Assembly (NCBI GenBank): GCA_037308085.1
Contig: CP147779.1
Coordinates: 1,824,001-1,888,000 of the forward strand
Direction: 5' to 3'
DNA length: 64,000 nt
DNA from: Promethearchaeati archaeon SRVP18_Atabeyarchaeia-1
GTDB taxonomy: Archaea; Asgardarchaeota; Atabeyarchaeia; Atabeyarchaeales; Atabeyarchaeaceae
Below the pieces are notes generated by a model, which saw only the letters and a program-made list of their open reading frames with translations, searched no databases and was not told the origin of the DNA. A program made the translations under genes and the position numbers. Positions within the stretch are counted from its first letter, which is position 1. Each line of letters opens with the position of its first letter. Shown piece after piece: positions 18,030-61,929 of this stretch.

Positions 18030-18932
18030 TTGCCCAAGCTAGAACTTGCAGGGCACTTCATTCTGCTTGCATGCCTCTCCCTGTGAAATATCCAGATACG
18101 CATATTTCCGCTTTTCTACTGACCCCACGGCTTCCCCCACCACTGTAAAGAGGCTCGCAGCCTGCGCTCCTCACTATATTCGTGAAGGAGAAACAGCATG
18201 TGACGCGTTGTGGACATAGTTGGTGTTCTTTCGATCAGGGACGAGGGAGCCAAAAGAGAGGATTAAAGAACCATGGAATAATTTTTGAGGCGATTACTGC
18301 TCCGCGGGCATTCACTCACTCGATCATCTAAGTCTGTCTTTTCAAGGAGGAGAAATCGGGGAACTGCAAGAATTATCGAAGGATTCCCAGCCTCTCGCTA
18401 CCAGAGTCAAGCCATTCGAGAATCGCGTTACCGGTCTAGACCCCTCGGAAAGAAGGTGATCTACCTCAAGATCAAGAAGAGTAAGGATCTGATGAGAGTG
18501 TATATACGGTCAAATGATTTCCTTGGGAGGGTTTTCGGAGAGCTTTTCGGTAGCCACCGTCCTAGTAGCCGGGTGCCTCACACAGCGCTGGCAATGAATA
18601 ACCTGGCATATGGGACTTTCAGCCATGCTTGGAAAGCGTTTGAGAAGGCTGAAACATTTCTTGAGCAAGCTATCCAAAGCATTTGCTTAGTTAACCAAGA
18701 CTCAAGTCGAGAATCTCTCTCTGGTCGAGAAATGCGCGCTAATACAGCGAGCTAGCGAATGAGCCTCGGCGAGGTCTTTTGGGTACAGAATTTTGCGATC
18801 TTTGTGCTGCGGTGCTGGGCTTTCATGCAAAAAGAGGGAAACCTATTTGAAAGGAAGTTGCGGATAGTTAAATGATGCTAATGAATTGATTGCGAACTTC
18901 ACATGAATAGGGTAAGGACGCTGATTCTATCA

Positions 18933-19541
18933 ATGGAGAATCTCAAGTACTCCTTCAAAGTCGTGGTGGCTGGTGACCCAGAAGTAGGCAAAACTTCTAT
19001 GGTACGCGTCTTCGCCACCGGTAAGTTCGAGAAGAACTACATTCCAACCCTTGGCGTCAACATTCTCTCCAAGAACCTCAATTTCAAGAATGTCGAGGTT
19101 GCGATGGCGATCTGGGATCTGGCGGGCCAAGGCTTCATGGACGAGGTTAGAGGTCAGTACTACAGTGGAGCAAGAGCAGCGATACTTGTCTATGACATCA
19201 CTAGAGCAGACACTTTCGCTCGAATTGTTGCTTGGAATGAGGAATGTAAGAAGTTCTCGCAAGGTATCCTAACCAAGATCATAGTCGGGAACAAATTGGA
19301 TTTAGATTCTGAGAGGGAAGTGGCAACTGGGGACGGAATAAGACTTGCAGAGGAAATAGGTGCTGGATTCGTCGAGACGTCCGCCAAGACTGGAGCCAAC
19401 ATTGAAGTCATGTTCACCGAGTGCGCAAAAAGCCTGCTGAAGAGCCAACTCATGTACCTTGAGAACAGAGTGTCTTTCCTGACCGCGAGAGATGGCATGT
19501 CACAGCCAGCCGCAATTGTGAAGAATGAATCGGGGAGGTAG
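18933..19541 (+). CDS. Rab-like small GTPase (Ras superfamily)
   Basis: G1 GDPEVGKT, G2 YIPTLG, G3 WDLAGQ, G4 NKLD, G5 ETSAK, plus YYSGA. No C-terminal prenylation Cys. Confidence 0.92.
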   Translation: MENLKYSFKVVVAGDPEVGKTSMVRVFATGKFEKNYIPTLGVNILSKNLNFKNVEVAMAIWDLAGQGFMDEVRGQYYSGARAAILVYDITRADTFARIVAWNEECKKFSQGILTKIIVGNKLDLDSEREVATGDGIRLAEEIGAGFVETSAKTGANIEVMFTECAKSLLKSQLMYLENRVSFLTARDGMSQPAAIVKNESGR

Positions 19542-19547
19542 CCCAAG

Positions 19548-20792
19548 ATGCAGGATATTGAGAAATTGAAGCAAGCCAAGAAGAAGGCAGAAGACACGCT
19601 GAAAGTTATCGAAGCCAAGAAGCTTAATGGAGAAATAAATCCAGCCGAATACGACGCTTGGAAAAGGGAATTCACGGGTCACGTCAAGAAACTGTCGGGG
19701 ATGCTGGAGCAGATGGGGATCAAAGATGAAGACCTGGGACAGGAGAGGCCCATCGATACGCGTTTCCAGATGTACCTAAAACCAGAAGTTCAAGGCATAA
19801 TGAAGAACCTTCTTGAGAATCCAGAGGAGGAAATTACTCCGACTTTCGACTGGACGCTTGGCGATCGCTATCCCGAGATTGAACGTATTTCTGGTCTTAA
19901 GCCAGAACAGGCGAAGCCTCTGGTTGAAGGGCTCTACGATGCTGGAGTTCTTCAAAGGGAGTTTGCAGATGTTTACATTAAGTGCCCGAAATGCAATTCC
20001 TTCGCGATTCGCCCAAGAGTCCAATGCCCTTCATGTGGGTCTCCAAAAGTGATCAGGGATGAGGTCATAGAACATTCGAAATGTGGTTATCTGGACTTCG
20101 CTGCGTCCTTCAAGGATAAGAGTGGATATGTCTGCCCCAAATGCAAGAAGCAACTGAAGAAGATGGGGGACGATTACAAGATGCCTGGCGAATGGTATAA
20201 GTGCAAGTCCTGCAACGAATTCTCCGAAACCATTACTCTGAGAGAGTCTTGCAGCGCTTGTGGAAATCTGTTTGACGAAGAGGAGGCTGTCCTCCACCAA
20301 GCCTATTCCTACAAGCTTTCCCCTAACGCTAGGGCAGAAGTCGAGAGCGCACTGATAGTAGTCACACCTGTCAAGGATAGTCTTGGGAAGCTTGGGCTTA
20401 CAATAGAGTCGCCGGCAATGCTGAGGGGTCTCTCGGGCGCAAGGCATCAATTCATGGCGGCAATAGTAGATTCGTCTTCTGCAGCGCTAGATAGAAGGCC
20501 GATCGTGATCGACGTAGCTTCTTCTGAATCAAAGGTCGACGTGAATCAGGTGCTAAGCTATTTCGCGAAGGCGTGCGATATCGATTCTGTCGCAAAGCTA
20601 CTGATAGGCGTGCCAGGTTTCAATGAAGATGCTAAGAAAGTCGCTGCAAGCTATGGAATATTAGCCGTCGAGGCAGGCGACAAGGAAAGGATTCCCTCAC
20701 TTCTTGTAAAATACGCTCAGTCACTCGCCAAGAGCAACCCTGAAGAAGTCAAGAAGGAAATCAGTACTCTAAAATCGGTTCTAGAGGCATAG
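19548..20792 (+). CDS. Multi-zinc-ribbon (TackOD1-like) protein with a C-terminal restriction-endonuclease-like fold
   Basis: CPKC, CPSCGS, IEHSKCG, CPKC, CKSC and CSAC. C-terminal GLSGARHQF...IDV...AKACDI...A..YGI. Starts 6 nt after the GTPase stop. Confidence 0.7.
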   Translation: MQDIEKLKQAKKKAEDTLKVIEAKKLNGEINPAEYDAWKREFTGHVKKLSGMLEQMGIKDEDLGQERPIDTRFQMYLKPEVQGIMKNLLENPEEEITPTFDWTLGDRYPEIERISGLKPEQAKPLVEGLYDAGVLQREFADVYIKCPKCNSFAIRPRVQCPSCGSPKVIRDEVIEHSKCGYLDFAASFKDKSGYVCPKCKKQLKKMGDDYKMPGEWYKCKSCNEFSETITLRESCSACGNLFDEEEAVLHQAYSYKLSPNARAEVESALIVVTPVKDSLGKLGLTIESPAMLRGLSGARHQFMAAIVDSSSAALDRRPIVIDVASSESKVDVNQVLSYFAKACDIDSVAKLLIGVPGFNEDAKKVAASYGILAVEAGDKERIPSLLVKYAQSLAKSNPEEVKKEISTLKSVLEA

Positions 20793-21650: not shown

Positions 21651-22793
21651 TCAGACCGTTATTGGGTATCTCCCATATTCCTGTGCTTTCTTGAACATTG
21701 TGTCGATATTCTGTGGAGGCACGTCGGGTTGGATGTTGTGTGCGCCAGCCAGTATGTAGCCGCCGCTTGGACCCAGATCGTGTATTCGCCTTCTGACTTC
21801 CTGTTCGACCTCATTTTCGGTTCCCTTGGGCAGGGTGTATTGTGTGTCGATTCCTCCATGGTAGCATACGCGCTTGTCGTATTTTTCGACTAGATGCCGT
21901 GAATCCATGTCTTTTGCTCTCGGTTGAACCGGGTTCAGGATGTCCACGCCGACGTCGGCAAGTTCCTCGATTATGGGCTCAACTGAGCCACAGCTGTGAA
22001 ACTGAATCTTGGCTTTCTTCGCAAACCTCTTAAGATGGGAGATAAGATCCCTCAGCCTAGGCTTGACTAGTTTTCTCCAGAGTGCAGGCGACATAAGAAG
22101 GCCGTCCTGATGGCCGTAGTCATCTGCGCAGAGGACGATAGTGGCGTAGTCTCCTACCTCGATCAGATAAGCTTCCCAGAAGCGCTTGTTGATCTCCAGA
22201 GTTCTATCCAGCAAGGCGCTGGCAAACTCGGGGTCCGCTATGATGTCGTAGTAGAACTTGTTGAAACCCCTAAGCCAGACCGCCAGCTCCAACACACCCC
22301 CCAGGAACGTATCTGCTGTGACCGCTAGGCCACTCTCAAGGAAAACTTTCGCGCGCTTTCCGATATTGCTGAATCTTTCCTCATGTGGCTCGGGAGCCAC
22401 GTATCTCTCTATGTCTTCAATTGACTTGGCGCTGTACAGAGGCGCCTTATCCTCGACCAATTCGTAGTAGTATCCTTGGTACTGCCTTTTCAACGTTAGA
22501 CCAAACTCGTTGACTATCCATCCTTCTCCCCTTTTCACCTCGTCTTCTCTGGGTGGATTGGGTCGGATATGCCTGATGTCCACGCCGAAGCGCTCAAGAA
22601 TCTTCTCGTCTACGTCAACGAGTCCCTGCATCACATCCCAGATCTTGGACTCAACCACCCTGAATCCGAGGTGCTTCAGCAGGTTATCGTAGGCGGCTTT
22701 AGTGATGCCGCTTATCACCCCTCCAAGGTCAACTGGAACCCTATCCGGCTCCTTCCTGTCAATTGATAGTAGAACCCTATCGATATGTTGCAT
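21651..22793 (-). CDS. Uroporphyrinogen decarboxylase family protein (MtaA/CmuA-like methylcobamide methyltransferase)
   Basis: PDRVPVDLGG, ADDYG, FHSCG, HGGIDTQ and GGYILAGAHNIQ. Directly follows a corrinoid protein gene. Confidence 0.85.
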   Translation of the reverse strand: MQHIDRVLLSIDRKEPDRVPVDLGGVISGITKAAYDNLLKHLGFRVVESKIWDVMQGLVDVDEKILERFGVDIRHIRPNPPREDEVKRGEGWIVNEFGLTLKRQYQGYYYELVEDKAPLYSAKSIEDIERYVAPEPHEERFSNIGKRAKVFLESGLAVTADTFLGGVLELAVWLRGFNKFYYDIIADPEFASALLDRTLEINKRFWEAYLIEVGDYATIVLCADDYGHQDGLLMSPALWRKLVKPRLRDLISHLKRFAKKAKIQFHSCGSVEPIIEELADVGVDILNPVQPRAKDMDSRHLVEKYDKRVCYHGGIDTQYTLPKGTENEVEQEVRRRIHDLGPSGGYILAGAHNIQPDVPPQNIDTMFKKAQEYGRYPITV

Positions 22794-22797
22794 AATC

Positions 22798-23454
22798 TCA
22801 TCTTCCGATCAGACTCTTGCACAGTCTCACCGCTTCAACCGCGTCTTTGCCATAGGCGTCCGCTCCCACTTCTTGCGCATATGCCTGGTCGACGGCGCCG
22901 CCTCCAATGATGATCTTGAGCTTACCCCTGAGTCCTCGCTTCTCGAGTTCTTGTATTACTGTCTTCATCTCGCCCCTCGTTGTTGATAGGAGCGCTGACA
23001 TGCAGAGTATACCCGCCTTCTCAGTAGCCGCGGATTCAGCGAACCTCTGAGGAGGCACATCAGTACCCAAGTCGATGACCATAAAACCTTCAGGTCTAAG
23101 CATCAGGGTGACTATGTTCTTGCCGAGATCATGTATGTCTCCTCTAACGGTTCCTATTACCACAGTGCCCTTGGCCTCTGATAGTTTGCCTTGCCTGAGG
23201 ATGGGGCTCAGAATATCCAGTACTTTCTGCCCAACCACTCCGGCAAACATTAGCTCTGGGAGGTAGTAGACCCCCTTCTCATACTTGCTCCCTATCACTC
23301 CAAAGGCTTCAGAAATGCTCTTCACCAATTGCCCGGCGGGGGCTCTCTGCTCCAAGCATCTCCCTGCAACTTCTAGGGATTCTAATTCATTTGCCATGTC
23401 GATGCTGCTGATCAGCGAATCCCTCAGTTTCTCGGCTATGCTGGCTCGACTCAT
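22798..23454 (-). CDS. Corrinoid (B12-binding) protein, MtaC/MttC-like
   Basis: GTVRGDIHDLGKNIV (DxHxxG), SALLSTT, IIGGGAV, and the YYLPEL cap domain. Confidence 0.92.
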   Translation of the reverse strand: MSRASIAEKLRDSLISSIDMANELESLEVAGRCLEQRAPAGQLVKSISEAFGVIGSKYEKGVYYLPELMFAGVVGQKVLDILSPILRQGKLSEAKGTVVIGTVRGDIHDLGKNIVTLMLRPEGFMVIDLGTDVPPQRFAESAATEKAGILCMSALLSTTRGEMKTVIQELEKRGLRGKLKIIIGGGAVDQAYAQEVGADAYGKDAVEAVRLCKSLIGR

Positions 23455-23645: not shown

Positions 23646-25712
23646 ATGAAGCGCGCAAGATTCTGCGCCCTGCTAACCGTATCACTCGTCATACTTTCAA
23701 TCACATCTCCATATGCATCTTTTACTCCTCTTACTCCAGCATCTGGTGCATCTACCTGGCAGATATACCCCGCTTGGGCAGCAGTTAACCTGCTGACACC
23801 AGGCGCGAACGTGGACAGACAGGCCTGGGCTTTGCTGATCGCAAACGCCTTCAGCCAATTCGGAATTTCCGCCACGAGGCAGATAGTTCCGTGGCCCACT
23901 GCATACAGCAGGATGTTGACTCCAGACCCATCAGTCGTCGGCAAAAGCTGGGCTGATGGCGGCTTCGACATCGGCTTCATAGGGTACGCCCTGACCCCTG
24001 ATACCGATCCATATTCATTCTTTCATCCCTACGACGGGCACGGGTTCTTCACCGGCGGGAACTACTACCTTTGGAATAACACTGAGAATGACCAGCTGCT
24101 AGAGAGTATTCGGAGTGAAATGAATTCGACGAAGAGGCTTGAGTACATCAGGCAATGGCAAGAACTGGCTTACGACGAGCTCCCCAGCATTACTCTCTTC
24201 TACACCAAGGATGTGGTCGCCTTCAAGCCGAGCTTTCAGTCAACGCCATTCTCAACATACTATTACCCGTTGTGGCCCAGTGTCGAGCAGTGGAACGACA
24301 CCTTGGGCTCGACGAATGTTACCGTCGCCCAGATAGGATCCTTTGGTCCTGGCGGCGGCGAAGGCCTTGTCCCATACCTTACCACGTCATACTACGACCT
24401 GACAGTGTATGGACCGATCTACGGTGAACTTGGTGGCTTAGGTATGCTCATGAGGAACACGTCGATGGCGATGGTACCCTACATGGCTTACGGCAACTAC
24501 ACTACTGCCGCCGGCGGCAAGAACTGGACCTTCTGGATAAGACCTGGCATCCACTTCCAGAACGGTGAGGAACTCGATGCGCGAGACTATGTCTACACAC
24601 TGAGGTATGAGATGACCCCCACCTCTGGATCAGCTGGCTCAGGAGTATACGCCTACATAACCAGCATCATCTGTGGTGCAGATTTCGGTGCGGGCATTGC
24701 AGCGGGCTACGGCAACCACAGCGTCTACTGGGCTGGCGAGGCTGGAACGCCAGGAGCGGCTCTGCCTTACAACAAGTATGAATTCCATTGCGACGAGCAA
24801 GCCGCGTGGGCTTTGACGACGGTAGATATTGGAGGCCTTGCGATCATGCCAGCATCAGTTCTTGTGAACGCTAGCACTTTCCCAGACTACAGCACTTGGA
24901 ACCCATCAAATGCACCTTTTATGCAGAGCACATCATTCAACACTGGAGCCTCAGGCACATACAGGTACTATGCCAAGAACGGGACATTCATGGCAGCGAG
25001 AAGTGGACCCTTCGGTGCTGGTCCATACCAGTGGGCCGACTACAACACAGGGACCGGTACAGCACACCTGACAAAGTTCGACGGCTACTTCCGCCGCGCC
25101 GCGCTGGAGTCTGAGGGCATCTACAGGTTCACGGACTACTACGTCGTGCACATCGGCAGTGTTACAGCTGCAATAGCAGCTCTACAGGCTGGCAGCGTTC
25201 AGGTACTTGACAGCCAATACCACGTGGAGGCCTCTTTGGATTCACTGAACCTAGCATGGGCTAGTTGGGTTTCCTTTGATAGCTATGGCGTACAGGAGAT
25301 GGGCTTCAACATGCGCCACCCGATTTGGGGCACAGGTTTGGGAACACCTCTTGGACAGTCGGACGCATCACAGGCAAAGGCAGCTGCTTACCATGTTAGA
25401 CATGCAATCGAGTACTTGATCCCGAAGGACCAGATAATCAAGAACATACTCCACAACTTCGGCAGCTACGGAATCACGACCCCTGTCACGAGAGGCAACC
25501 TGGGCTTCGACGCCAGTATTGTCCCTCGCAACTACACGTATCCGGTGGCCATGCTCTTGGCTAAGGCGGAGTTTGAGGCTGCAGGATACACATTTGTACC
25601 GCCGCCACAGCATGGGCCCTGGTACAACTATGGTCCGTTGATCGCTGTTGTTGGGCTGGCTGGAATCATAGTCGTAGGAGGGCTCTACGCCTTTAGACCC
25701 CGCAGGCGGTAG
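23646..25712 (+). CDS. Family 5 (OppA/DppA-like) solute-binding protein, circularly permuted, with C-terminal TM anchor (SBP1)
   Basis: Signal peptide, NWTFWIRPGIHFQNGEELDARD, GAGPY, MGFNMRHP, EAAGY, then TM and RPRRR. Confidence 0.85.
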   Translation: MKRARFCALLTVSLVILSITSPYASFTPLTPASGASTWQIYPAWAAVNLLTPGANVDRQAWALLIANAFSQFGISATRQIVPWPTAYSRMLTPDPSVVGKSWADGGFDIGFIGYALTPDTDPYSFFHPYDGHGFFTGGNYYLWNNTENDQLLESIRSEMNSTKRLEYIRQWQELAYDELPSITLFYTKDVVAFKPSFQSTPFSTYYYPLWPSVEQWNDTLGSTNVTVAQIGSFGPGGGEGLVPYLTTSYYDLTVYGPIYGELGGLGMLMRNTSMAMVPYMAYGNYTTAAGGKNWTFWIRPGIHFQNGEELDARDYVYTLRYEMTPTSGSAGSGVYAYITSIICGADFGAGIAAGYGNHSVYWAGEAGTPGAALPYNKYEFHCDEQAAWALTTVDIGGLAIMPASVLVNASTFPDYSTWNPSNAPFMQSTSFNTGASGTYRYYAKNGTFMAARSGPFGAGPYQWADYNTGTGTAHLTKFDGYFRRAALESEGIYRFTDYYVVHIGSVTAAIAALQAGSVQVLDSQYHVEASLDSLNLAWASWVSFDSYGVQEMGFNMRHPIWGTGLGTPLGQSDASQAKAAAYHVRHAIEYLIPKDQIIKNILHNFGSYGITTPVTRGNLGFDASIVPRNYTYPVAMLLAKAEFEAAGYTFVPPPQHGPWYNYGPLIAVVGLAGIIVVGGLYAFRPRRR

Positions 25713-25927
25713 GGAAGCCCGCCCTGAACGATGCTGGAACGCGCGAGGAGCTGCAGGAGCAGAAGATCTGAATTAGATCAGAGAATCGACAATCACAGGT
25801 CGGATCTCGGCTCATGAATTTATAAGCATCTGCAGAACACCATTTATCCGTGGAAGGGACAGCGACGTAGGGGGTCTGCAAGTTCCCCGTCCAGAATGTG
25901 GGAGCGGTTCAGGAAAAGGGGTTCAAA

Positions 25928-28381
25928 TTGAGAAGAGCTACGTATTCGCCGCCAAGGTTGGCTGCAGCTCTAACGCTCGTGGTGATTGCGTCCTCATTCT
26001 CTTTACCAGTATTCGCAGCAATGGCTGCGGCTCAGGGAACCGGAGCAACCGTAGATCCCGTAATAAGAATCTACCTCCTAGTTTCGCCAGGGGCCATGAG
26101 GCAGTCCACGGCACAGGTTATAGCGAACTGTCTGTCGGAACTTGGGATTCAAGCACAGGTGATCTCAGCTGACTGGGCAACTATCAATGGCAGAGCCTTC
26201 TCTCCGGCCCCCAGCATGATCGGGAAAACTTATGAGCAAGGAGGATTCGACGCTCTGCTCACAGACTGGCTCTACAATCCTGACCCTAATCCTTATCCCA
26301 TGTTTCACAGTAGCCAGATGCCTCCGACTGGGCAGAACTACTACCTCTGGAATAACACAATGGCGGACATGCTCGCGTATAACATGACAAGGGTTATTGA
26401 TCGCCCCACGCAGCTGCAATGCGCTGAGATGTGGCAGGAAGTAGCCTACGAGGAACTGCCCTCAATCGCAATATGCTATGACCATGGTGTAGTTGCATTT
26501 CGCCCGAACCTCAATTCGACGCCATTCGAAGCGTGTTACTATCCTAGGTGGCCGGGTGTTGAGCGCTGGAGCTTCACCTCATCTCCTATGACCAGCGTTA
26601 CCGTAGCCCAGCCTGGGGCGTGCCCGTATTGGGGGCTGACGCCGTACCATTCAAACTACTACAGTGACATGACTGGTTATGCCCCAATCTACGGCGAGCT
26701 TGGCGCCTACGGTCTGCTCATTAGGAGTCTGAACTCGACTTTGATGGAGCCTTACATGGCCTACGGGAACTACACGATGTCGCCTGATGGGAGAAACTGG
26801 ACTTTCTGGATACGACCTGGAATAAGGTTCCATAACGGCGAGGAACTTGATGCAAGAGACGTGGCGTACACCTACAGGTATGTCATGACTCCAAGCTGGA
26901 ATTCTGGCTGGTACTCCTACGTCAAGGGGATACTTGGAGCCAACAGTAGCGTGTATTGGGCAGGTGAATCAGGGACAGCGGGGGCAGGCATGCCGTACAA
27001 CAAGTTTGAGGTGCACTTTGACCTACCGCAGCCGTGGGCTTTCTTCCAGGCGGACATCGGAGGCGGGGCAATTCTTCCCGCGTCCGTAATTGTGAACTCG
27101 AGTAGTGGGATACCCGATCTCAGTGCCTGGAATCCGGACCCCGTAGGCACGGCTGGGTTTGTGTGGACATCCTTCGTCACTGGAAGCGCCGACACTTACT
27201 GGTACTATGCCAAAAACGGAACGCAGTACACGTCTTCGGGTCCGATGGGGGCGGGTCCATACAAGTGGAGCTCCTATGATCCAAACACGGAGACAGTGCA
27301 TCTCATCAAGTTCGATGGCTATTTCAATAAGGCCGTGCTGGAAGCTGGAGGAGCATTTGGAATAACCGACTACTACGTGAAGCACATCGCCGATGCCTAT
27401 TCAGCCATCTCATGCTTGACAAGCAACACGGTCCAAGTTCTCGATTCTAGCTATCACCTCGGAACATACGTAGCATCTTTAGATCCCGGCTGGAGCCGAA
27501 TAATCTCGTATCAAGGATACCAAGTGACAGAGCTGGGCTTCAACATGCGCCACCCAATCTTGGGCACAGGGCTGGGTACCCCCTTAGGTATAACCAATGC
27601 AAGTATGGCGGCTGAGGCAGCGAAGCACGTCAGACATGCACTTGAGTACTTAATCCCAAAGGACCAGATAATCTCGTCAATCCTAAACGGCTATGGCGAG
27701 CCTGGCCTTACGCCGCCTATTATGAGATCAATGCCAGGATTCAACTACGCCATTACCCCACGCAACGGTACATTGTCGAATGTCAAGGTCCTCGCTATGA
27801 ACGAGTTGGAGGCTGCGGGATACACGTTTATACAGGGACAAGGATATTGGCCGAATTATGATCTCCTTATTATTACGATATCTCTTGTCAGTATAACCTT
27901 CGCCTCGCTACTCCTCGGAGTGGGCCTAATACGAAGGAGAAGCAGGTTGAATGCCGACGTTCGAGGCCAAAGAGGAAACCCGCGCATTGAAACTCCAATA
28001 AGCCAGCCTGAAACGCTGGAACAGGGCGAACCGGAGAAACCAATTGAAACCTCGGTTCCACGACAAACTACAATGCCGTGCCCGCGTTGCGGAGCAATTT
28101 CCAGGGATCCTGCCGCGCAGTACTGCAAATACTGCGGGGCACTTCTGGGAGGCGGTTCAAGAGGGATGGAGATTCAGGCCAAGGGAAGAACATTCGCGCT
28201 AAAGGGCAGATGTATGGTTTGCAATCTTCCAATCGGGAAAAGTGATGAGGTTGTCTGGTGCCCCCGATGTGGAAACGCTGCGCACAGGACACACTTGCTC
28301 GAATGGTTGCACGTCAAAAGCTACTGTCCGGTCTGCCGCGCACCCATCAACCAAAGAGACCTTCTCTCTTCACGTGATTGA
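25928..28381 (+). CDS. Family 5 solute-binding domain + TM + cytoplasmic zinc ribbon + RING-like finger (SBP2, receptor-like)
   Basis: Paralogue of SBP1 up to ELEAAGY. Then TM LLIITISLVSITFASLLLGVGLI, RRRSR, CPRCG...CKYCG and CMVC-x12-CPRC-x4-H-x2-H-x3-W-x6-CPVC. Confidence 0.85.
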   Translation: MRRATYSPPRLAAALTLVVIASSFSLPVFAAMAAAQGTGATVDPVIRIYLLVSPGAMRQSTAQVIANCLSELGIQAQVISADWATINGRAFSPAPSMIGKTYEQGGFDALLTDWLYNPDPNPYPMFHSSQMPPTGQNYYLWNNTMADMLAYNMTRVIDRPTQLQCAEMWQEVAYEELPSIAICYDHGVVAFRPNLNSTPFEACYYPRWPGVERWSFTSSPMTSVTVAQPGACPYWGLTPYHSNYYSDMTGYAPIYGELGAYGLLIRSLNSTLMEPYMAYGNYTMSPDGRNWTFWIRPGIRFHNGEELDARDVAYTYRYVMTPSWNSGWYSYVKGILGANSSVYWAGESGTAGAGMPYNKFEVHFDLPQPWAFFQADIGGGAILPASVIVNSSSGIPDLSAWNPDPVGTAGFVWTSFVTGSADTYWYYAKNGTQYTSSGPMGAGPYKWSSYDPNTETVHLIKFDGYFNKAVLEAGGAFGITDYYVKHIADAYSAISCLTSNTVQVLDSSYHLGTYVASLDPGWSRIISYQGYQVTELGFNMRHPILGTGLGTPLGITNASMAAEAAKHVRHALEYLIPKDQIISSILNGYGEPGLTPPIMRSMPGFNYAITPRNGTLSNVKVLAMNELEAAGYTFIQGQGYWPNYDLLIITISLVSITFASLLLGVGLIRRRSRLNADVRGQRGNPRIETPISQPETLEQGEPEKPIETSVPRQTTMPCPRCGAISRDPAAQYCKYCGALLGGGSRGMEIQAKGRTFALKGRCMVCNLPIGKSDEVVWCPRCGNAAHRTHLLEWLHVKSYCPVCRAPINQRDLLSSRD

Positions 28382-28513
28382 GCAACAGCTAGGCAGCGTA
28401 ATCATTGAGAGACCTGCTTATTCTTCTCCCTCCAGGGACTTTCGACGTGTCCATGCCTGCGCAACTTGTCTGGGCCTCCATCGCTTCGAGAGAACATGCG
28501 TTGCGCCTTGTGC

Positions 28514-29500
28514 TCATGTAAGCACGCCTTGGCTGGGGCCGTTTTGACGCTTTTTGTGGCTTCTCTCTTTCCGGGGCGCGCCTTCACTGGGCTTACGTTG
28601 GCTTGGAAGCAATTGTCTCAGGCGGTCCCTTTGAACTAGCAGTTCGATTCTCTGCATTGCTCTTTCTACGTATTCCTGGTTGATGTCGATGCCTATGTAG
28701 TGTCTACCGGTGTTTCTCGCTGCAAGGCAAGTCGCACCTGCGCCGCAGAACGGATCCAAGACCACTTCTCCCTTGAAGGTGTAAAGCTGTATGCACCTGT
28801 AGGGCAGCTCGACAGGAAAAGGCGCCGGGTGCCCTACTTTCTCTGCAGACTCTGGCTGGAATTCCCATACGCTTTTGGTGTATTCGAGAAACTCCTCCTT
28901 TGATATTGTAGGTTCTCTTCCCTTGTCACTTCTCCCAAATTTGCCTTTAGAGAAGACTAGTATGTACTCGTGTGTGTCCCTTAGGGTTGGATTTGTGGGT
29001 GATAGCCAGCTTCCCCACGCGGTTGAGGCGCCAGCGCCTGCTCCCTTGTTCCATATGACTTCTCCTCTCATCAGGAAGCCGACTTCTGTCATGACGTCTA
29101 TCACGAACTTGTGGTACGGAATGTAGGGCTTCCTCCCAACGTTTGCGATGTTGATGCAGGCCCTGCCTCCATTGACGAGTACTCTGTTTGTCTCGGAGAA
29201 GACGCCTTTCAACAATCCTGAGTATTCCTCAAGGTTCAGGTCTTCGTCGTATTCCTTTCCCACATTGTAGGGAGGTGAGGTGACCATGAGGTGGACGCTG
29301 CTATCCGGGATACTGTTCATCTTTCTTGAATCGCTGCACAGAACTCTGTCCAGTACTTCGGGAGGAATAGGATTCTCAATTTCGGGTTCGCCCTCTGCTA
29401 CTTTTAGGTCTTGGTACAGCTTGCCCCGGTAGAATGGGGTGGAGTCGTGGCACTCCCTCTTCGAAACGCCGAACCTGCTAGTCTTGGTTCCCCTCACCAT
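28514..29500 (-). CDS. Site-specific DNA methyltransferase (N4-C/N6-A, beta class), orphan
   Basis: TSPPYN precedes HPAPFP and LDPFCGAG. No cognate endonuclease adjacent. Confidence 0.9.
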   Translation of the reverse strand: MVRGTKTSRFGVSKRECHDSTPFYRGKLYQDLKVAEGEPEIENPIPPEVLDRVLCSDSRKMNSIPDSSVHLMVTSPPYNVGKEYDEDLNLEEYSGLLKGVFSETNRVLVNGGRACINIANVGRKPYIPYHKFVIDVMTEVGFLMRGEVIWNKGAGAGASTAWGSWLSPTNPTLRDTHEYILVFSKGKFGRSDKGREPTISKEEFLEYTKSVWEFQPESAEKVGHPAPFPVELPYRCIQLYTFKGEVVLDPFCGAGATCLAARNTGRHYIGIDINQEYVERAMQRIELLVQRDRLRQLLPSQRKPSEGAPRKERSHKKRQNGPSQGVLT

Positions 29501-29787
29501 AAGGATCTTCCTCTCCACTCGTTGCCTAAGAACTCACTCTTCAATACCGATCAGATCAAGTTAGAATACAACACGTCTAAATGGTTATCTCTAGAGACTC
29601 TAGTGTAATATTCGTGAACAAGATTCGATCTAGCAAAAAGCAGAGCGTCTCGTGCCGCTCCTCTCAAAACGCCGGTCTCTGCTTGGATATCATGCTCTCG
29701 TTGATTTCCCGTAATGTCCGTCGTCCCACGTATTCTCCCCTTGCTTCAGCGAAGCCAGCTTCAGGTTAGATTATTACAGACGCGGGC

Positions 29788-30009
29788 CAGAAATCCCACG
29801 CCCTTTAGAGGTGGGGTGAGTGGGGGGTATGAATAGGGGAACGTGCATCTGTCTCTGCAATAGGCACGGTGCGTGCCGAATCTACGCCTGCGGAGATCGA
29901 AGCCGCTACTCCCGCGCCCCTGGGCGCGTCAACGGTGCCCCAAACGCGCCAAGGCAAGCTCGGTCCATGAGCCAGGAAGCCAACACGCCTTAGCGCGTTG
30001 GCAGCTCAC
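29788..30009 (+). mobile_element. Non-autonomous IS200/IS605-derived element (copy E2): left-end hairpin, omega-RNA-like scaffold, right end TCAC
   Basis: Left hairpin AAATCCCACGCCCTTTAGAGGTGGGG, internal ACGCCTGCGGAG, right end GAAG-CCAACACGC-CTTA-GCGCGTTGG-CAGCTCAC. Colinear with E3 and E1. Confidence 0.8.
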
Positions 30010-30029
30010 TACTCTAGGCAACTGTCACG
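29860..30029 (+). ncRNA. Putative TnpB omega-RNA/reRNA of E2 (scaffold to 30009, guide from flank TACTCTAGGCAACTGTCACG)
   Basis: Hairpins GGCACG-GTG-CGTGCC and CGCGCCC-CT-GGGCGCG plus the terminal hairpin. TATA-like TATGAATA at 29828-35. Boundaries approximate. Confidence 0.5.
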
Positions 30030-30093
30030 TGTCGCAGAAGCAATGTATTTATGGATGAAGCCGGATAGTTGTATTGCCGCAGTTACTTGTAGC

Positions 30094-32856
30094 ATGGGGG
30101 GAACGCAGTTAAAGCGCGGCGAGAAACGTTATGCGCTTCTATTTGTGGCAATGCTGATCTTCACTGGGCTCTCCTACCAATTCGCGCCCAGTACGTTGAA
30201 TACTTCTACTCCAAGCCAAGAGCACTCAAGAACCCCATACATATCTACGCCTTTCAGCATAACCCTGCTGGTACCTGGCGCAAACCCGCAGAGACAAGCT
30301 TGTGCGCAAATGGTCGCGGCCAACATGCGCAGCATTGGCATACAAGTGCAGACGGTCATTGCTTCATGGGCTCAGACCTACTCGAGGGTTCTGACGCCTG
30401 ATCAGTATGTGATTGGGAAGCCCTATGATCAGGGCGGTTTCGACATGGTATTTATTGGATATTCTCTGGGTCCCGATCCAGATCCATACACCTTGTACCA
30501 TAGCAGTCAATTCGCCCCGTATGGAGAGAACTACTACCTCTGGAACGACTCATACAACGATGCATTATGCTACAACATAACGCACACAGTCGACCCTACA
30601 CTGCGTCTTCAATACGTTCATCAATGGCAGGCATACGCCTACAACTGGACACCTAGCGTGGCAATCTACTACAACAAAGAGGTCGTAGCCTTCAAGCCAA
30701 GCTTCCAGTCAGCACCATTCCAGAATAACCACTATCCACAGTGGCCTGGCGTTGAGCAATGGAACGACACAGCGGGCTCAACCAACGTCAAGATTGCGCA
30801 GATAGGACCCTTTGGTCCTGGCGGTGGCCAGGGTCTTGTCCCATACCTTACCTCGTCATACTACGACTTGACGGCCTACGGACCCATCTTCGGTGAACTT
30901 GGCGGCTCTGGGCTGCTTACCAGGGATCAGTCAGGAGCAATGGTGCCCTACGTGGCTTACGGCAACTACACAGCTACCGCTGGCGGCAAGAACTGGACCT
31001 TTTGGATTCGTCCTGGAATCACGTTCCAGGATGGCACGCCACTTGATGGTAGGGACTTTGTCTATACGCTGAGATACGAGATGACTCCTGCCTCCGGATC
31101 GGCTGGAACAGGAGCGTACAACTACGTGTCTGGCATCATCTGTGGTTCCGATGTCAGCGCTGGTATAGCCGCGGGATATGGCAATAGAACTGTCTACTGG
31201 GCAGGTGAGCAGGGAACACCAGGAGCGGGGCTGCCGTTGAACTACTATGAGGTTCACGTCGACCAAGAAGCTGCTTGGGCTTACACGGAAAGTGACATCG
31301 GAGGTTCCTCAATCCTGCCGGCAGAAGCCTTGGTAAACAGCAGCGCAGGAGTCCCAAACTACAGCGCCTGGAATCCATCTAATGCGGCTGTCCTTCAAGG
31401 CACATCGTACAACACTGGAACGTCAGGAACTTATGTGTACTATGATAAAACAGGATCATTGATGCCGGCCAGATCTGGGCCTTTCGGTGCTGGTCCGTAC
31501 AAGTGGATTAGCTACGACACAGGCACGTTTACTTCGCATGAGCAGAAGTTCAGTGGCTACTTCAGACGCTCTGCCCTTGAGGCCGCGGGTGTCTACAGGT
31601 TCACGGACTACTACGTCGAGTACATCAGCAGCGCTACGGCTGCAATAGCTGCTCTGCAGTCTGGCAGTGTTCAGGTGCTCGACTCACAATACCACTTGGA
31701 GAACTTTTTGGGTTCACTCAATCCTTCGTGGTCTAGTCTGACTTCCTACGATGGGTACGGCGTACAGGAGATGGGTTTCAACTTGCGCCACCCGATCTGG
31801 GGGACTGGTCTGGGCACTCCTCTAGGTCAGTCTAATCCAGCGAGGGCAGCCGAAGCCGCTTGGCACGTTAGACGCGCAATAGAGTACCTAGTTCCGAAGG
31901 ACACCATAATCAAGCAGGTTCTCAATGGGTATGGCACATATGGTATCACAACCCCGATTACCCGGAAGACCCTCGGCTTTGACACGAGTATCGTTCCTCG
32001 CAACGAAACCGCACAGAGTGCAATCACTCTTGCTCAACAGGAGCTTGAGGCAGCGGGATATGTATTCCTTCAGCCACCGGGGACGATCTCAGACTTGGCT
32101 GCTGGCGCTTCAAGTGGCACTACGATTACTTTGACTTGGACGGCACCCGGCGCTCATGGCATGAGCGGAAACGTTTCGAGCTACGTTGTCAAATACTCCG
32201 AAAGTGGGGCCGTAACCCCCTCAAATTGGGGATCGGCAACAAACTTCACTCAATCGTGGAAGCCAGCCAAGAATGGAACCCTGGAAACGCGTACAATTTC
32301 TGGTCTTGACAACGCCACGAGATACTGGTTTGCAGTAGAAGCTTGCGACAACGCGACGCACTGCGGTGATGTTTCGAACAGCCCGATGGGTATAACTGCC
32401 GACGCTTTTCCGCCTGCCACAATAGCCGACCTCGCAGCGGGTAGTGCAACTGCTAACTCGATCACTTTAAGTTGGACTGCGCCTGGTGGGAATGGCACAC
32501 TAGGTAAAGCGGCCGGCTACGTAGTTAGGTATTCTACGAGCGGGCCCATAACCGTGGTCAACTGGGCATCCGCGAAGAACTATACTCAGTTTTGGGCACC
32601 TCTTCCCGCGGGCAGCATAGAGAGTCACGTGATAAATGGGCTAAACACAAGTACCCTGTACTGGTTTGCAGTCAGGGCGTACGACGGGGTTCCCAACATG
32701 GGCGGTGTCTCCAATAGTCCAAGCGAATCAACAACTAGCGGAGGAGGCGGGCAGCCTGGTGGAGCTCTTCCCATCGAAGTAATAGCTCTAGTCGGTATCG
32801 CAGGAGTGGCGGCAGCCACCGTGGCGGTGGCTATCGCGAAGATCCGCAAGAGATAG
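30094..32856 (+). CDS. Family 5 solute-binding protein with two fibronectin type III domains and C-terminal TM anchor (SBP3)
   Basis: Close paralogue of SBP1. Two repeats of (PPxT)IxDLAAG...ITLxWTAPG...YWFAV.A.D...VSNSP, then TM and KIRKR. The track start (29998) lies inside element E2. Confidence 0.85.
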   Translation: MGGTQLKRGEKRYALLFVAMLIFTGLSYQFAPSTLNTSTPSQEHSRTPYISTPFSITLLVPGANPQRQACAQMVAANMRSIGIQVQTVIASWAQTYSRVLTPDQYVIGKPYDQGGFDMVFIGYSLGPDPDPYTLYHSSQFAPYGENYYLWNDSYNDALCYNITHTVDPTLRLQYVHQWQAYAYNWTPSVAIYYNKEVVAFKPSFQSAPFQNNHYPQWPGVEQWNDTAGSTNVKIAQIGPFGPGGGQGLVPYLTSSYYDLTAYGPIFGELGGSGLLTRDQSGAMVPYVAYGNYTATAGGKNWTFWIRPGITFQDGTPLDGRDFVYTLRYEMTPASGSAGTGAYNYVSGIICGSDVSAGIAAGYGNRTVYWAGEQGTPGAGLPLNYYEVHVDQEAAWAYTESDIGGSSILPAEALVNSSAGVPNYSAWNPSNAAVLQGTSYNTGTSGTYVYYDKTGSLMPARSGPFGAGPYKWISYDTGTFTSHEQKFSGYFRRSALEAAGVYRFTDYYVEYISSATAAIAALQSGSVQVLDSQYHLENFLGSLNPSWSSLTSYDGYGVQEMGFNLRHPIWGTGLGTPLGQSNPARAAEAAWHVRRAIEYLVPKDTIIKQVLNGYGTYGITTPITRKTLGFDTSIVPRNETAQSAITLAQQELEAAGYVFLQPPGTISDLAAGASSGTTITLTWTAPGAHGMSGNVSSYVVKYSESGAVTPSNWGSATNFTQSWKPAKNGTLETRTISGLDNATRYWFAVEACDNATHCGDVSNSPMGITADAFPPATIADLAAGSATANSITLSWTAPGGNGTLGKAAGYVVRYSTSGPITVVNWASAKNYTQFWAPLPAGSIESHVINGLNTSTLYWFAVRAYDGVPNMGGVSNSPSESTTSGGGGQPGGALPIEVIALVGIAGVAAATVAVAIAKIRKR

Positions 32857-37902: not shown

Positions 37903-38053
37903 TCACCACAGCCAGTGTCTTCTAACTCTATTAGTCTACACGAGTAGATATAGGCGAGGGCAAAATAGAAAAGACTATATTTATGGGGAACGAGATATTC
38001 CCTCCATCACAGTGCAAAACTTGTCCGGTCTGAGCGGAGGAGGTGCGGGAATC

Positions 38054-38941
38054 ATGTTCCTCGATCATGCAATTGCTCTAGGCTTATCTGCTGGGGCGGT
38101 CTCTTTGGCAAAAGCCACTTTGAGCATGCCTTCTTCTGTGGAAGGCGCCCCGTTTGACTACATTGATCCCACATTGGGGATCTTGCTGGTCATGTTCTTT
38201 ATCATGGTTATTTTCATAGCAGCCGTGGCTTCCACTGGTTCAAGAGCACACCACCCCCCATCTCCGCGAACTGAGGCTGTTACCTTTGAGAGACAGACCC
38301 CCGTGGGGCCTCTAATCGAGGCGCTGAAAAGCACTGACTGGGAAACCAGGCGGGAAATGGTGTCAGCGCTGGGAAACATTGGTGACGAGCGGGCAGTCAC
38401 CCCCTTGACAGGAGTTCTGCTTCACGATGAGAATAACGAAGTCCGGCAGGAGGCTGCCAGTTGGCTGGGGCATCTGTGTAGCGAACAAGCGGTTCCCTTT
38501 CTACTGAAAGTAGTTAAGGATTACCTCGATGGTGCCGAGAAAGCGGTCAACGTGGTTATAGCCTCGGCTATAGCCCTTGGAGAAATCGGGAGCCAAGAGT
38601 CACTCGCCACACTGAGGAGACTGGCAACAGATCTAGGACAGAAAGGCATGGTAGAAGATCTGAGGAAGGTCAATCATGCGACCAAAGATATACAACTGGC
38701 TAACGACTTAACTCGCAAGAAGTGCATCGTGTGCAATCTCCCACTTGGGAAAGATGAGCAGCTAGTTCAGTGCCCCTTCTGCAAGAACGTTGCCCACAAG
38801 GACCACATGCTGGACTGGCTAAGCGGAAGGGACTATTGCCCTACATGCAGAACAAAGGTCAAGGGATCACAGTTGATCCCCATTCAATTTCAGTCGCTCG
38901 CCGCCGTGCCGAAGTCTCGCCCCGTAAAAAGGAAGCAATAG
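38054..38941 (+). CDS. TM + HEAT repeats + RING-like finger protein
   Basis: TM LGILLVMFFIMVIFIAAVA, HEAT_2-like repeats (ALGNIGDERAV, VRQEAASWLG, ALGEIG), then CIVC-x12-CPFC-x4-H-x2-H-x3-W-x6-CPTC. Confidence 0.85.
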   Translation: MFLDHAIALGLSAGAVSLAKATLSMPSSVEGAPFDYIDPTLGILLVMFFIMVIFIAAVASTGSRAHHPPSPRTEAVTFERQTPVGPLIEALKSTDWETRREMVSALGNIGDERAVTPLTGVLLHDENNEVRQEAASWLGHLCSEQAVPFLLKVVKDYLDGAEKAVNVVIASAIALGEIGSQESLATLRRLATDLGQKGMVEDLRKVNHATKDIQLANDLTRKKCIVCNLPLGKDEQLVQCPFCKNVAHKDHMLDWLSGRDYCPTCRTKVKGSQLIPIQFQSLAAVPKSRPVKRKQ

Positions 38942-41086: not shown

Positions 41087-41662
41087 CTACCTCATGGCTG
41101 ATTGTACCAGACTCTTTGGCAGCTGATCCTCGAGCACCTTGTAGTCTAGCTTCTGGCTACATGATGGGCATAAGCCCCTCGTATGGATCCACACGAGGAA
41201 ATCGTCTCTGTGAGCGACAGTTCCGCAGTGAGGGCAGAAGACTATGGGATCGGTCTTTGTGATGCTCTCGTGGCAGACTGCGCATAGTAGTTCCTGGCTT
41301 ACCATTGACAGCCTCTTCGCCAGATCTAGGTCAGACTCCTCTTGAGAGGACGATGTCATCGCCCTTTGTGTTGCTTCGAGATTGGAGCCACAGTTGTGAC
41401 AGAAGCTTTGATCCTGCGATTTAAGGGTCGCGCCACAGTATGGGCAGAACCTCGTGCTGAAGCGGGTCACAGGCTGGGTCCTCCTCAAAGCGGGCGAGTT
41501 CGTCGCCACTCCTTCTCTCGATCGTGGTCTGCCATTCGTTGACACCGCTATCGAGACAACTAAGAGCGTAAAGAAGAGAATCGCTATCAAAGGACCAAGA
41601 ATGAGTACAGGAGCAAAGACAGCGAAATACATTCTTATGTCAGCCCTCCCTAAACCGAACAA
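41087..41662 (-). CDS. TM + zinc ribbon + RING-like finger protein
   Basis: N-terminal TM, FCPYCG...FCHNCG, then CAVC-x12-CPHC-x4-H-x2-D-x3-W-x6-CPSC. Confidence 0.82.
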   Translation of the reverse strand: MFGLGRADIRMYFAVFAPVLILGPLIAILFFTLLVVSIAVSTNGRPRSREGVATNSPALRRTQPVTRFSTRFCPYCGATLKSQDQSFCHNCGSNLEATQRAMTSSSQEESDLDLAKRLSMVSQELLCAVCHESITKTDPIVFCPHCGTVAHRDDFLVWIHTRGLCPSCSQKLDYKVLEDQLPKSLVQSAMR

Positions 41663-61227: not shown

Positions 61228-61929
61228 TTGAGAAATGCTATGATGGTTCCCCATTCAGAAGTTCCTCAGCTTGGTGAGACACGCGATGACAAACTTGCCC
61301 CTACTCTTGGTATCATTGTCCTTCTCATTCCCATCTTGTTTGGAATAATAGTGACCGTCATCGGGCTTGTGGGCTGGAGTCAGGGAGGGGATATCGGTTT
61401 CCAATTTGGTCTTTTGGTTATGATAGGTGCTCTGATTACTGTGTGCTCTCTCGGCGTGTTCGTTGGACCCATTCTCAGAATAAGGCGCACCCAGGAAAGA
61501 TACAGGCTTAACACAAGGCTTTACGAGGAGCAGAAGCCCCACATCAATGACCGGTACTGCGTATACTGCAACTACGATATCGGTATCTCCGGATCGAGAT
61601 TCTGCCCAAACTGCGGGGCGAGCCTAATAACGATAAGGGCAGGTACTGACATCGCCGCCATTCGAAGCAAGGTAGCAGTAAATGTGAGCCCGGTATCGGT
61701 CTCCGAGACCCTGGGAACCTGTCCAATCTGCAAATATGATATTCTGAGAAGCGACCCAGTTGCATCATGCCCCTACTGCGGGACCCTTGCTCACAGAGTT
61801 CACCTTCTGGAGTACTTGCATGTTAAGGGAGACTGTCCTTCCTGCGGAAAACGTTTGAGCGAAAAGGAAATCAAAGAGCACCTAGCAAGAGCGGAGACAC
61901 GAATAGGATCTAAGAAGAGAGTGGGTTGA
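61228..61929 (+). CDS. 2TM + zinc ribbon + RING-like finger protein
   Basis: Two TM segments, YCVYC...FCPNCG, then CPIC-x12-CPYC-x4-H-x2-H-x3-Y-x6-CPSC. Confidence 0.85.
   Translation: MRNAMMVPHSEVPQLGETRDDKLAPTLGIIVLLIPILFGIIVTVIGLVGWSQGGDIGFQFGLLVMIGALITVCSLGVFVGPILRIRRTQERYRLNTRLYEEQKPHINDRYCVYCNYDIGISGSRFCPNCGASLITIRAGTDIAAIRSKVAVNVSPVSVSETLGTCPICKYDILRSDPVASCPYCGTLAHRVHLLEYLHVKGDCPSCGKRLSEKEIKEHLARAETRIGSKKRVG

Follow-up and report, generated by a model that had tools for sequence, protein, structure and literature searches.

In a 64-kb stretch of DNA (the window; positions 1824001-1888000 of the closed 2.81-Mb genome of Ca. Atabeyarchaeum deiterrae "Atabeyarchaeia-1"), we studied a gene, here designated SBP-RING, whose predicted product joins a substrate-binding protein (SBP) domain to a single transmembrane (TM) helix, a zinc ribbon and a RING finger. 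This Asgard archaeon comes from wetland soil, and its genome has been curated and closed. Profile searches and structure prediction indicate that the ectodomain is a true, though circularly permuted, family-5 SBP. The RING likely recruits the E2 enzyme encoded in the ubiquitin operon of the same genome, which makes the protein a candidate membrane E3 ligase.

To our knowledge, the archaeal ubiquitylation systems described so far are minimal operons that encode a single small RING protein, and few of their targets are known. An initial annotation of the window, made from the sequence alone, had proposed that a transport binding protein was repurposed here as a ligand-sensing receptor whose output is ubiquitin-like modification. 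In the present study, we examined the gene, its relatives and its genomic context, and we consider below which parts of this proposal hold.

Gene structure and predicted topology

The open reading frame (ORF) encodes 827 amino acid residues from the GTG codon at 25898 and 817 from the TTG codon at 25928, ten codons downstream, where the database copy (P0004) begins. Residue numbers in this text follow the 827-residue reading. Coordinates of the features are collected in Table 1. The hydropathy maximum at residues 21-39 lies within the signal-like N-terminus, and the N-x-S/T sequons are confined to the ectodomain (11, with none in the tail). With a Sec-type signal peptide and a flexible linker of about 45 residues, the product should be a type-I membrane protein with a peptide/nickel-type SBP domain outside and the ribbon and RING in the cytoplasm, a topology predicted from hydropathy and the positive-inside rule only. 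The layout agrees with the initial annotation, which had described one uninterrupted ORF from a signal peptide to a RING-like finger (ORF, Pfam and hydropathy concur), a TM helix followed by an RRRSR stop-transfer sequence, and a cytoplasmic zinc ribbon with a RING-like finger (eight ligands, a Pfam ribbon match and a RING fold in the model described below).

The fusion is found in independent data and related genomes

The initial annotation had called for confirmation of the fusion in reads and in related genomes, and both sources supplied it. In an independent study, contigs X2 and X3 run unbroken through 27615-28083 and 27948-28500, and thus span the SBP end, the TM helix, the linker, the ribbon and the RING. 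Two orthologues, 60-67% identical to the SBP-RING protein, keep the whole architecture in a continuous frame. One (P0012, 792 residues) comes from the congeneric genome G001, is 60% identical over the full length and has all the zinc ligands; the other (P0155, 800 residues) comes from an unrelated Logan assembly and has the same architecture. In a quick tree of the SBP sequences, the three fusion proteins group together in a clade of their own (SH-aLRT 100), in agreement with one fusion event.

It is extremely improbable that the gene is an assembly chimera, or a decaying pseudogene in which an SBP gene has been joined to a RING ORF that lies downstream and is unrelated to it. The junction is crossed unbroken by the contigs of the second study, two diverged orthologues carry the same continuous frame, and the genome is curated and closed. 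The evidence has one weakness, as run X1, in which the stretch is complete, could itself be the source sample; otherwise we found no support for a chimera, and on the strength of contigs X2 and X3 and the two orthologues we rejected it. The X1 contig also aligns, with gaps, to 27530-27673 of the window; this alignment reflects the paralogous neighbouring SBP gene and not a rearrangement.

Conservation between the protein and its two orthologues differs by region. The ectodomain is 65-66% identical, the RING 59-65% and the ribbon 43-52%; the values drop to 17-29% for the TM helix and 13-17% for the linker, which also has a 17-residue indel. As the ectodomain and the RING are conserved and the linker is variable, both end domains are under constraint and the linker is only a tether. 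With this query, the fusion was not found in the sister genus (G002), where the best SBP frame ends without a RING.

A complete but circularly permuted SBP ectodomain

Pfam SBP_bac_5 matches residues 284-647 of the protein (E 7e-41; 140.9 bits against a cut-off of 32.4), and the AlphaFold2 (AF2) model of the ectodomain is a complete two-lobed SBP (mean pLDDT 92.5, pTM 0.89). A Foldseek search with this model returned AppA, DppA, NikZ and NikA at E 1e-13 to 1e-10. The corresponding TM-scores were only 0.4-0.5, which we attribute not to another fold but to the permutation, because it defeats sequential alignment.

The permutation was seen in two ways. By phmmer, residues about 67-209 align with residues 372-503 of AppA (1xoc), that is, with its C-terminal ~130 residues, and residues 277-385 align with the N-terminal part of standard SBPs, so that the canonical N-terminus begins near residue 277. 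In the Pfam search, profile positions 291-361 match window positions 26069-26305, upstream of the match to profile positions 3-283. The same order, with the canonical C-terminal ~130 residues first, occurs in all six SBP_5 genes of the genome. The permuted family reaches proteins from Bathyarchaeia and Njordarchaeia, and the same order is implied for those homologues. In a limited literature search, we found no description of permutation in family-5 SBPs.

The initial annotation had recognized a full OppA/DppA-like domain. Completeness is borne out by Pfam and the AF2 model, but the order of the domain is not the canonical one. Compared with known family-5 (cluster C) SBPs such as AppA (1xoc), DppA and NikA, the SBP-RING protein is alike in its SBP_bac_5 score and its predicted two-lobed fold. 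It differs from them in being permuted, in its C-terminal TM anchor, in having no adjacent permease genes and in its cytoplasmic RING tail.

The zinc ribbon and the RING finger

The four ribbon cysteines are at least 90% conserved in a 54-sequence alignment of homologues (A1). Pfam and profile searches gave no specific functional match for the ribbon, returning only generic ribbon families and eL37.

The RING ligands are C772, C775, C788, C791, H796, H799, C810 and C813, and their spacing, C-x2-C-x12-C-x2-C-x4-H-x2-H-x10-C-x2-C, is compatible with a cross-brace. All eight are invariant or at least 90% conserved across the homologues in A1. The fuller motif of the tail is C-x2-C-x12-C-P-x-C-x4-H-x2-H-L-L-x-W-x6-C-P-x-C, in which ligands 3 and 4 form a C-P-x-C knuckle in place of C-x-H and the sixth ligand is His, as seen in the A1 profile alignment. 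The srfp protein of C. subterraneum is reported to share this shifted ligand pattern (PMC5654768).

When the tail was searched in isolation, Prok-RING_1 scored 29.4 bits (cut-off 29.1) and zf-RING_2 scored 27.0 bits (cut-off 27.3). Prok-RING_1 (PF14446) reportedly corresponds to the prokaryotic RING fingers of Burroughs, Iyer and Aravind from 2011. For most of the RING paralogues in the genome it ranks first or second among the Pfam matches, and several of these paralogues score over the cut-off. The alignment, however, covers only the first half of that model (positions 5-32 of 54), and the Asgard RING family matches eukaryotic RING-H2 structures at least as well. Searched against the PDB, the A1 profile matched eukaryotic RING-H2 E3s at E 6e-9 to 1e-3. 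The best match was RNF24 (E 6e-9), followed by others that include Arkadia, RNF165, RNF126, EL5, RNF4, RNF38, AMFR/gp78, HRD1, ZNRF1 and RLIM; RNF13 matched at E 0.015.

An AF2 model of the tail, built on A1, gave pLDDT above 90 for the RING and about 75 for the ribbon, with a disordered connector. The top Foldseek matches of the RING model were RNF24, EL5 and RNF165. RNF165, in its complex with UbcH5b~Ub, superposes on the model with a root-mean-square deviation of 1.1-1.2 Å and a TM-score (by target) of 0.82. In VIA-align, Z was 6-7.8. The initial annotation had stated that its reading would fall if the C-terminal domain were not a RING; in both structural comparisons, all leading matches were RING or U-box folds, and the tail is thus predicted to fold as a RING.

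Positions of the E2-binding surface are kept as well, namely V774 (the hydrophobic residue after ligand 1), W803 (after ligand 6), P811 (after ligand 7) and the linchpin R814 (after ligand 8). Across the 54 homologues, there is almost no variation at the Val/Ile, the Trp or the Pro of C-P-x-C. V774, W803 and R814 are the equivalents of I30, W58 and R69 of the C. subterraneum srfp, mutations of which impaired its E3 activity (PMC5654768). Co-folding of the RING (A1 residues 50-113) with the E2 of the genome (A2) gave a score of 0.20 (mark, 0.32), which we did not use as evidence either way.

Relationship to the ubiquitin operon

The initial annotation had called for a search for E1, E2 and ubiquitin genes, and the genome encodes all three. 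These lie in a cluster at 328-333 kb together with a JAB protease, UEV-Vps23 and an 83-residue RING protein (Table 1). The E2 has an HPN motif and a catalytic Cys68. The ubiquitin gene (331445-331699) ends ...TEGG-ND and therefore encodes a pro-ubiquitin that requires C-terminal processing, presumably by the JAB protease, which is encoded 1.5 kb upstream.

The operon RING and the tail RING are 46% identical over 56 residues (E 1e-20), and by sequence comparison the tail RING belongs to the same family, the archaeal srfp family. An operon RING of this type has been proven to be an E3 in C. subterraneum (PMC5654768), and a Helarchaeial E1-E2-RING cascade has been reconstituted (bioRxiv 10.1101/2023.07.25.550441). 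The tail RING has the C-x2-C...C-P-x-C...H-x2-H...W...C-P-x-C pattern of the srfp E3s and equivalents of their I30, W58 and R69. In contrast, srfp E3s are soluble proteins of about 80-100 residues encoded beside ubiquitin, E2 and E1, whereas the SBP-RING protein is a membrane protein of 827 residues with a C-terminal RING and an added zinc ribbon and ectodomain, encoded 1.5 Mb from the operon. We regard it as a paralogue of the operon srfp and not as srfp itself.

Small members of the RING family adjoin E2 in many Asgard genomes, and RING-(Ub)-E2 neighbourhoods recur across the phylum. In every Asgard family covered by both our RING and our E2 searches, the two were either both found or both not found; neither was found in five families (f5, f6, f11, f16 and f19). 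This co-occurrence is weak support, because related genomes are not independent observations.

A shuffled RING cassette in a family of 29 ORFs

The tail motif occurs in 29 ORFs of the genome, the highest RING-family count among 101 sampled Asgard genomes. The next highest counts were 17, 13 and 12, and many genomes had one to three. In a library of 1.8 billion proteins, the motif was found in about 1000 protein clusters (E <=1e-3), almost always at the C-terminus.

In many comparisons between paralogues, homology begins only with the TM helix (query positions about 656-822), which identifies TM-linker-ribbon-RING as the unit that moves. The modules that precede the RING in this genome include an FG-GAP propeller, PPC, CarboxypepD_reg (Ig-like), an ectodomain of unknown family, three tandem arrestin-N modules, HEAT repeats and short TM stubs, and metagenomic relatives add FN3 and DUF5122 propeller ectodomains. 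In the case of the arrestin type, three tandem genes at 2026880-2031514 of the genome combine Arrestin_N (with a Spo0M-like part), a zinc ribbon and a RING, and a fourth, divergent ribbon-RING gene lies beside the trio at 2025882-2026811.

The initial annotation had pointed out that the neighbouring paralogue SBP1 stops right after its TM helix; its end lies five residues past the helix. From these comparisons, the TM-zinc ribbon-RING segment is best described as a shuffled cassette, which in this lineage appears to have been joined once to an SBP that had previously ended at its TM anchor.

Transporter context

The only Opp/Dpp translocator of the genome is oppB-oppC-oppD-oppF (2275207-2279335), which lies beside one of the SBP paralogues. 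Its oppBC permease pair (2275207-2277213) is about 420 kb from the SBP-RING gene. Five of the six SBP_5 genes, including SBP-RING, have no adjoining permease genes; orphan SBPs can share a transporter.

A TM-HEAT-RING gene of the same RING family begins 17 nucleotides downstream of oppBCDF (2275207-2280350 with the RING gene included). We regard this adjacency as a lead, not as evidence. In the congeneric genome, the HEAT-RING orthologue occupies another locus, in the vicinity of a weak OPT-like transporter match (E 4e-10) and two unknown genes. An ABC ATPase gene beside the orthologue P0155 was considered as an Opp partner and rejected, as it encodes an exporter ATPase of the DrrA type.

Proposed role of the SBP-RING protein

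On balance, we consider it probable that the protein is a membrane-anchored E3 with SBP input, the preferred mode being docking on a permease. In this scheme, the RING would most likely recruit the single canonical E2 of the genome charged with the operon ubiquitin, and the SBP domain would supply the input. The ligand-closed SBP may dock on the only Opp/Dpp-type permease, as free SBPs do, which would put the tethered RING beside the cytoplasmic face of the transporter. In this way, substrate availability would be linked to the ubiquitylation of a target, which might be the transporter, a membrane protein nearby or the SBP-RING protein itself, and the ubiquitylated proteins could be handled by UEV-Vps23/ESCRT or the proteasome. 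We prefer docking because no conformational change would have to be passed along one helix and a floppy linker, and because it matches what SBPs already do. It also resembles the substrate-induced ubiquitylation of transporters in eukaryotes, and the arrestin-RING paralogues fit the same theme. Alternatively, in a pure receptor mode, ligand closure might alter oligomerization (RING clustering) and so RING activity.

Several observations weigh against this scheme. In the RING, Cys serves as ligand 4 and His as ligand 6, where the canonical RING-H2 (C3H2C3) has His and Cys, respectively. The Pfam scores are borderline, and those of the full-length protein (22.8 for Prok-RING_1 and 23.2 for zf-RING_2) are both under the cut-offs. 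The linchpin Arg is replaced by His in both orthologues and varies among the paralogues. No E2, ubiquitin, E1 or transporter gene adjoins the SBP-RING gene in the window, the fusion was found only in a genus-level clade, and the adjacency of oppF and the HEAT-RING gene is not kept in the congeneric genome G001. How closure of the SBP would be transmitted via a single TM helix and a disordered linker is unexplained, and the E3 activity, ligand, substrate and outside-inside coupling of the protein are putative.

The borderline Pfam scores and the variable linchpin would also suit an ordinary transport SBP that delivers peptides to OppBCDF and carries a non-catalytic zinc-finger tail with no E2 recruitment. 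The ribbon and the RING would then be a protein-protein or membrane-proximal scaffold for clustering, anchoring or recognition by other E3s. Paralogues with the same ectodomain are plain TM-anchored SBPs, and RING-like treble clefs without ligase function exist (GATOR2, IFT and Slx1 were among the structural matches). However, the finger and the operon E3 are close paralogues, the hydrophobic residue, Trp and Pro of the E2 surface are kept in nearly all 54 homologues, and the presence of RING is concordant with that of E2 in the Asgard families compared above. We therefore judge a non-catalytic tail to be quite unlikely.

It is also unlikely that the protein is an active E3 and no sensor, with the SBP only positioning the ligase, or the RING setting the turnover of its own protein in cis, so that ubiquitylation is constitutive and independent of ligand. 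The ectodomain is conserved as strongly as the RING and models as a complete two-lobed SBP, and SBPs of cluster C are known to change shape and dock on partners when loaded. Such a role would nevertheless be in keeping with the presence of the cassette behind PPC, Ig-like and FN3 ectodomains, for which no ligand-induced closure is known, and the disordered, variable juxtamembrane linker argues against a rigid conformational relay.

Returning to the membrane-anchored E3 with SBP input, we put forward only tentatively, at a little under even, that occupancy of the SBP matters for RING output. Of the proposal in the initial annotation, the structural premises stood, and E3 activity, ligand and, above all, outside-in control are still matters of inference. 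Its full form would be a ligand-gated receptor ubiquitin ligase, in which peptide or nutrient binding outside switches RING ubiquitylation inside, for example of the Opp transporter, with follow-up by ESCRT or the proteasome, as one of a 29-gene toolkit of receptor-, arrestin- and HEAT-type RING proteins. We consider this somewhat unlikely; the data are explained as well by a transporter-coupled role or by constitutive activity as by ligand-controlled ubiquitylation.

Comparison with known receptor systems

The initial annotation had likened the topology to that of eukaryotic PA-TM-RING ligases, and hydropathy and Pfam agree with it. RNF13, RNF43/ZNRF3 and GRAIL/RNF128, and also RNF24, have the same order of signal peptide, ectodomain, single TM helix and cytoplasmic RING-H2. 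Unlike these proteins, the SBP-RING protein has an SBP in place of the protease-associated (PA) ectodomain (there was no PA match in Pfam), a shifted zinc ligand pattern and an extra zinc ribbon. We regard it as an analogue and not a member of this group, and convergence by domain shuffling is more likely than common descent of the whole architecture.

SBP (Venus-flytrap) folds are reused as extracellular input in bacterial SBP-fused or SBP-dependent sensor kinases, chemoreceptors, class C G-protein-coupled receptors and ionotropic glutamate receptors. The same logic, a periplasmic-binding-protein fold as receptor input, would apply here, the difference being that the putative output is a RING E3. 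We know of no other SBP-RING combination, and a limited literature search gave no description of SBP-RING proteins, Asgard TM RING ligases or archaeal receptor-type RING ligases.

The SBP-RING gene and its 28 paralogues suggest that RING ligases in one Asgard lineage diversified by fusion to modules that recognize substrates or signals, the same strategy as produced hundreds of eukaryotic E3s. The main interest lies in this lineage-specific E3 radiation in an Asgard archaeon and in its direct testability. The SBP version is the easiest to test, because ligands can be screened, closure is well understood and this closed genome itself supplies genes for the cognate E1, E2 and ubiquitin. A positive result would be the first case in a prokaryote of outside-in ubiquitin signalling or of transporter ubiquitylation induced by substrate, and the origin of receptor and transporter down-regulation would become directly testable. 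If the ligand-gated form were true, Asgard archaea would have evolved signal-responsive, substrate-specific ubiquitylation of membrane proteins, irrespective of any inheritance by eukaryotes.

Neighbouring genes in the window

The initial annotation took both neighbouring SBPs to be paralogous to the ectodomain, and SBP1 and SBP3 are indeed 51% and 54% identical to the SBP-RING protein, respectively.

Table 1 Features of the SBP-RING gene and related loci (window positions unless genome coordinates are indicated)
Feature	Position	Strand	Basis or remarks
SBP-TM-zinc ribbon-RING gene	25898 (GTG) or 25928 (TTG) to 28381	+	One uninterrupted ORF
Signal peptide-like N-terminus, residues about 11-46	25928..26035	+	Basic n-region, hydrophobic core, AAA-QG
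Family-5 (cluster C) SBP ectodomain, residues 47-655, circularly permuted	26036..27862	+	Pfam, AF2, Foldseek
Permuted segment, residues about 67-209, corresponding to the C-terminal part of canonical SBPs	26096..26524	+	phmmer, Pfam positions
TM helix L656-I678 and RRRSR 679-683 (positive-inside stop-transfer)	27863..27946	+	Sequence, hydropathy
Juxtamembrane linker, residues 684-726, variable, probably disordered	27947..28075	+	13-17% orthologue identity, 17-residue indel, low pLDDT at the start of the tail model
C4 zinc ribbon, ligands C728, C731, C743, C746	28076..28144	+	Pfam Zn_ribbon_3, DZR; match residues 727-749
RING-H2-like finger, residues 769-817	28202..28348	+	Pfam match at residues 771-814
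SBP1: permuted SBP with C-terminal TM anchor, no cytoplasmic tail	23646..25712	+	Paralogue
SBP3: permuted SBP, two FN3 domains, TM anchor, no RING	29998..32856	+	Paralogue
Permuted SBP_5 genes elsewhere in the genome	1384437-1386350, 2272731-2274758, 2479923-2481764 (genome coordinates)		
Ubiquitin cluster: UEV-Vps23, JAB protease, 83-residue RING, pro-ubiquitin, E2, E1 (ThiF)	328-333 kb of the genome		

Directly upstream of the SBP cluster, on the opposite strand (21651-23454, -), are genes for a URO-D/MtaA-like methyltransferase and a B12-binding corrinoid protein. In the congeneric genome G001, a gene of corrinoid-protein size directly abuts the SBP-RING orthologue, with no SBP1 gene between them. 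An N6/N4 DNA methylase gene (28514-29518, -) separates the SBP-RING gene from SBP3 and is encoded on the opposite strand. Further upstream (18903-20792, +), a gene for a Ras-family small GTPase of 212 residues is followed after 7 nucleotides by a gene for a TackOD1-domain protein with embedded zinc ribbons; the two look like a GTPase/output-domain pair. Rfam and tRNA scans of the window gave no matches, and the runs listed for the stretch include no RNA data set. Three further members of the RING family are encoded in the window, at 38012-38941 (+), 41087-41662 (-) and 61228-61929 (+), and in each of them one or two TM helices are predicted ahead of the RING.

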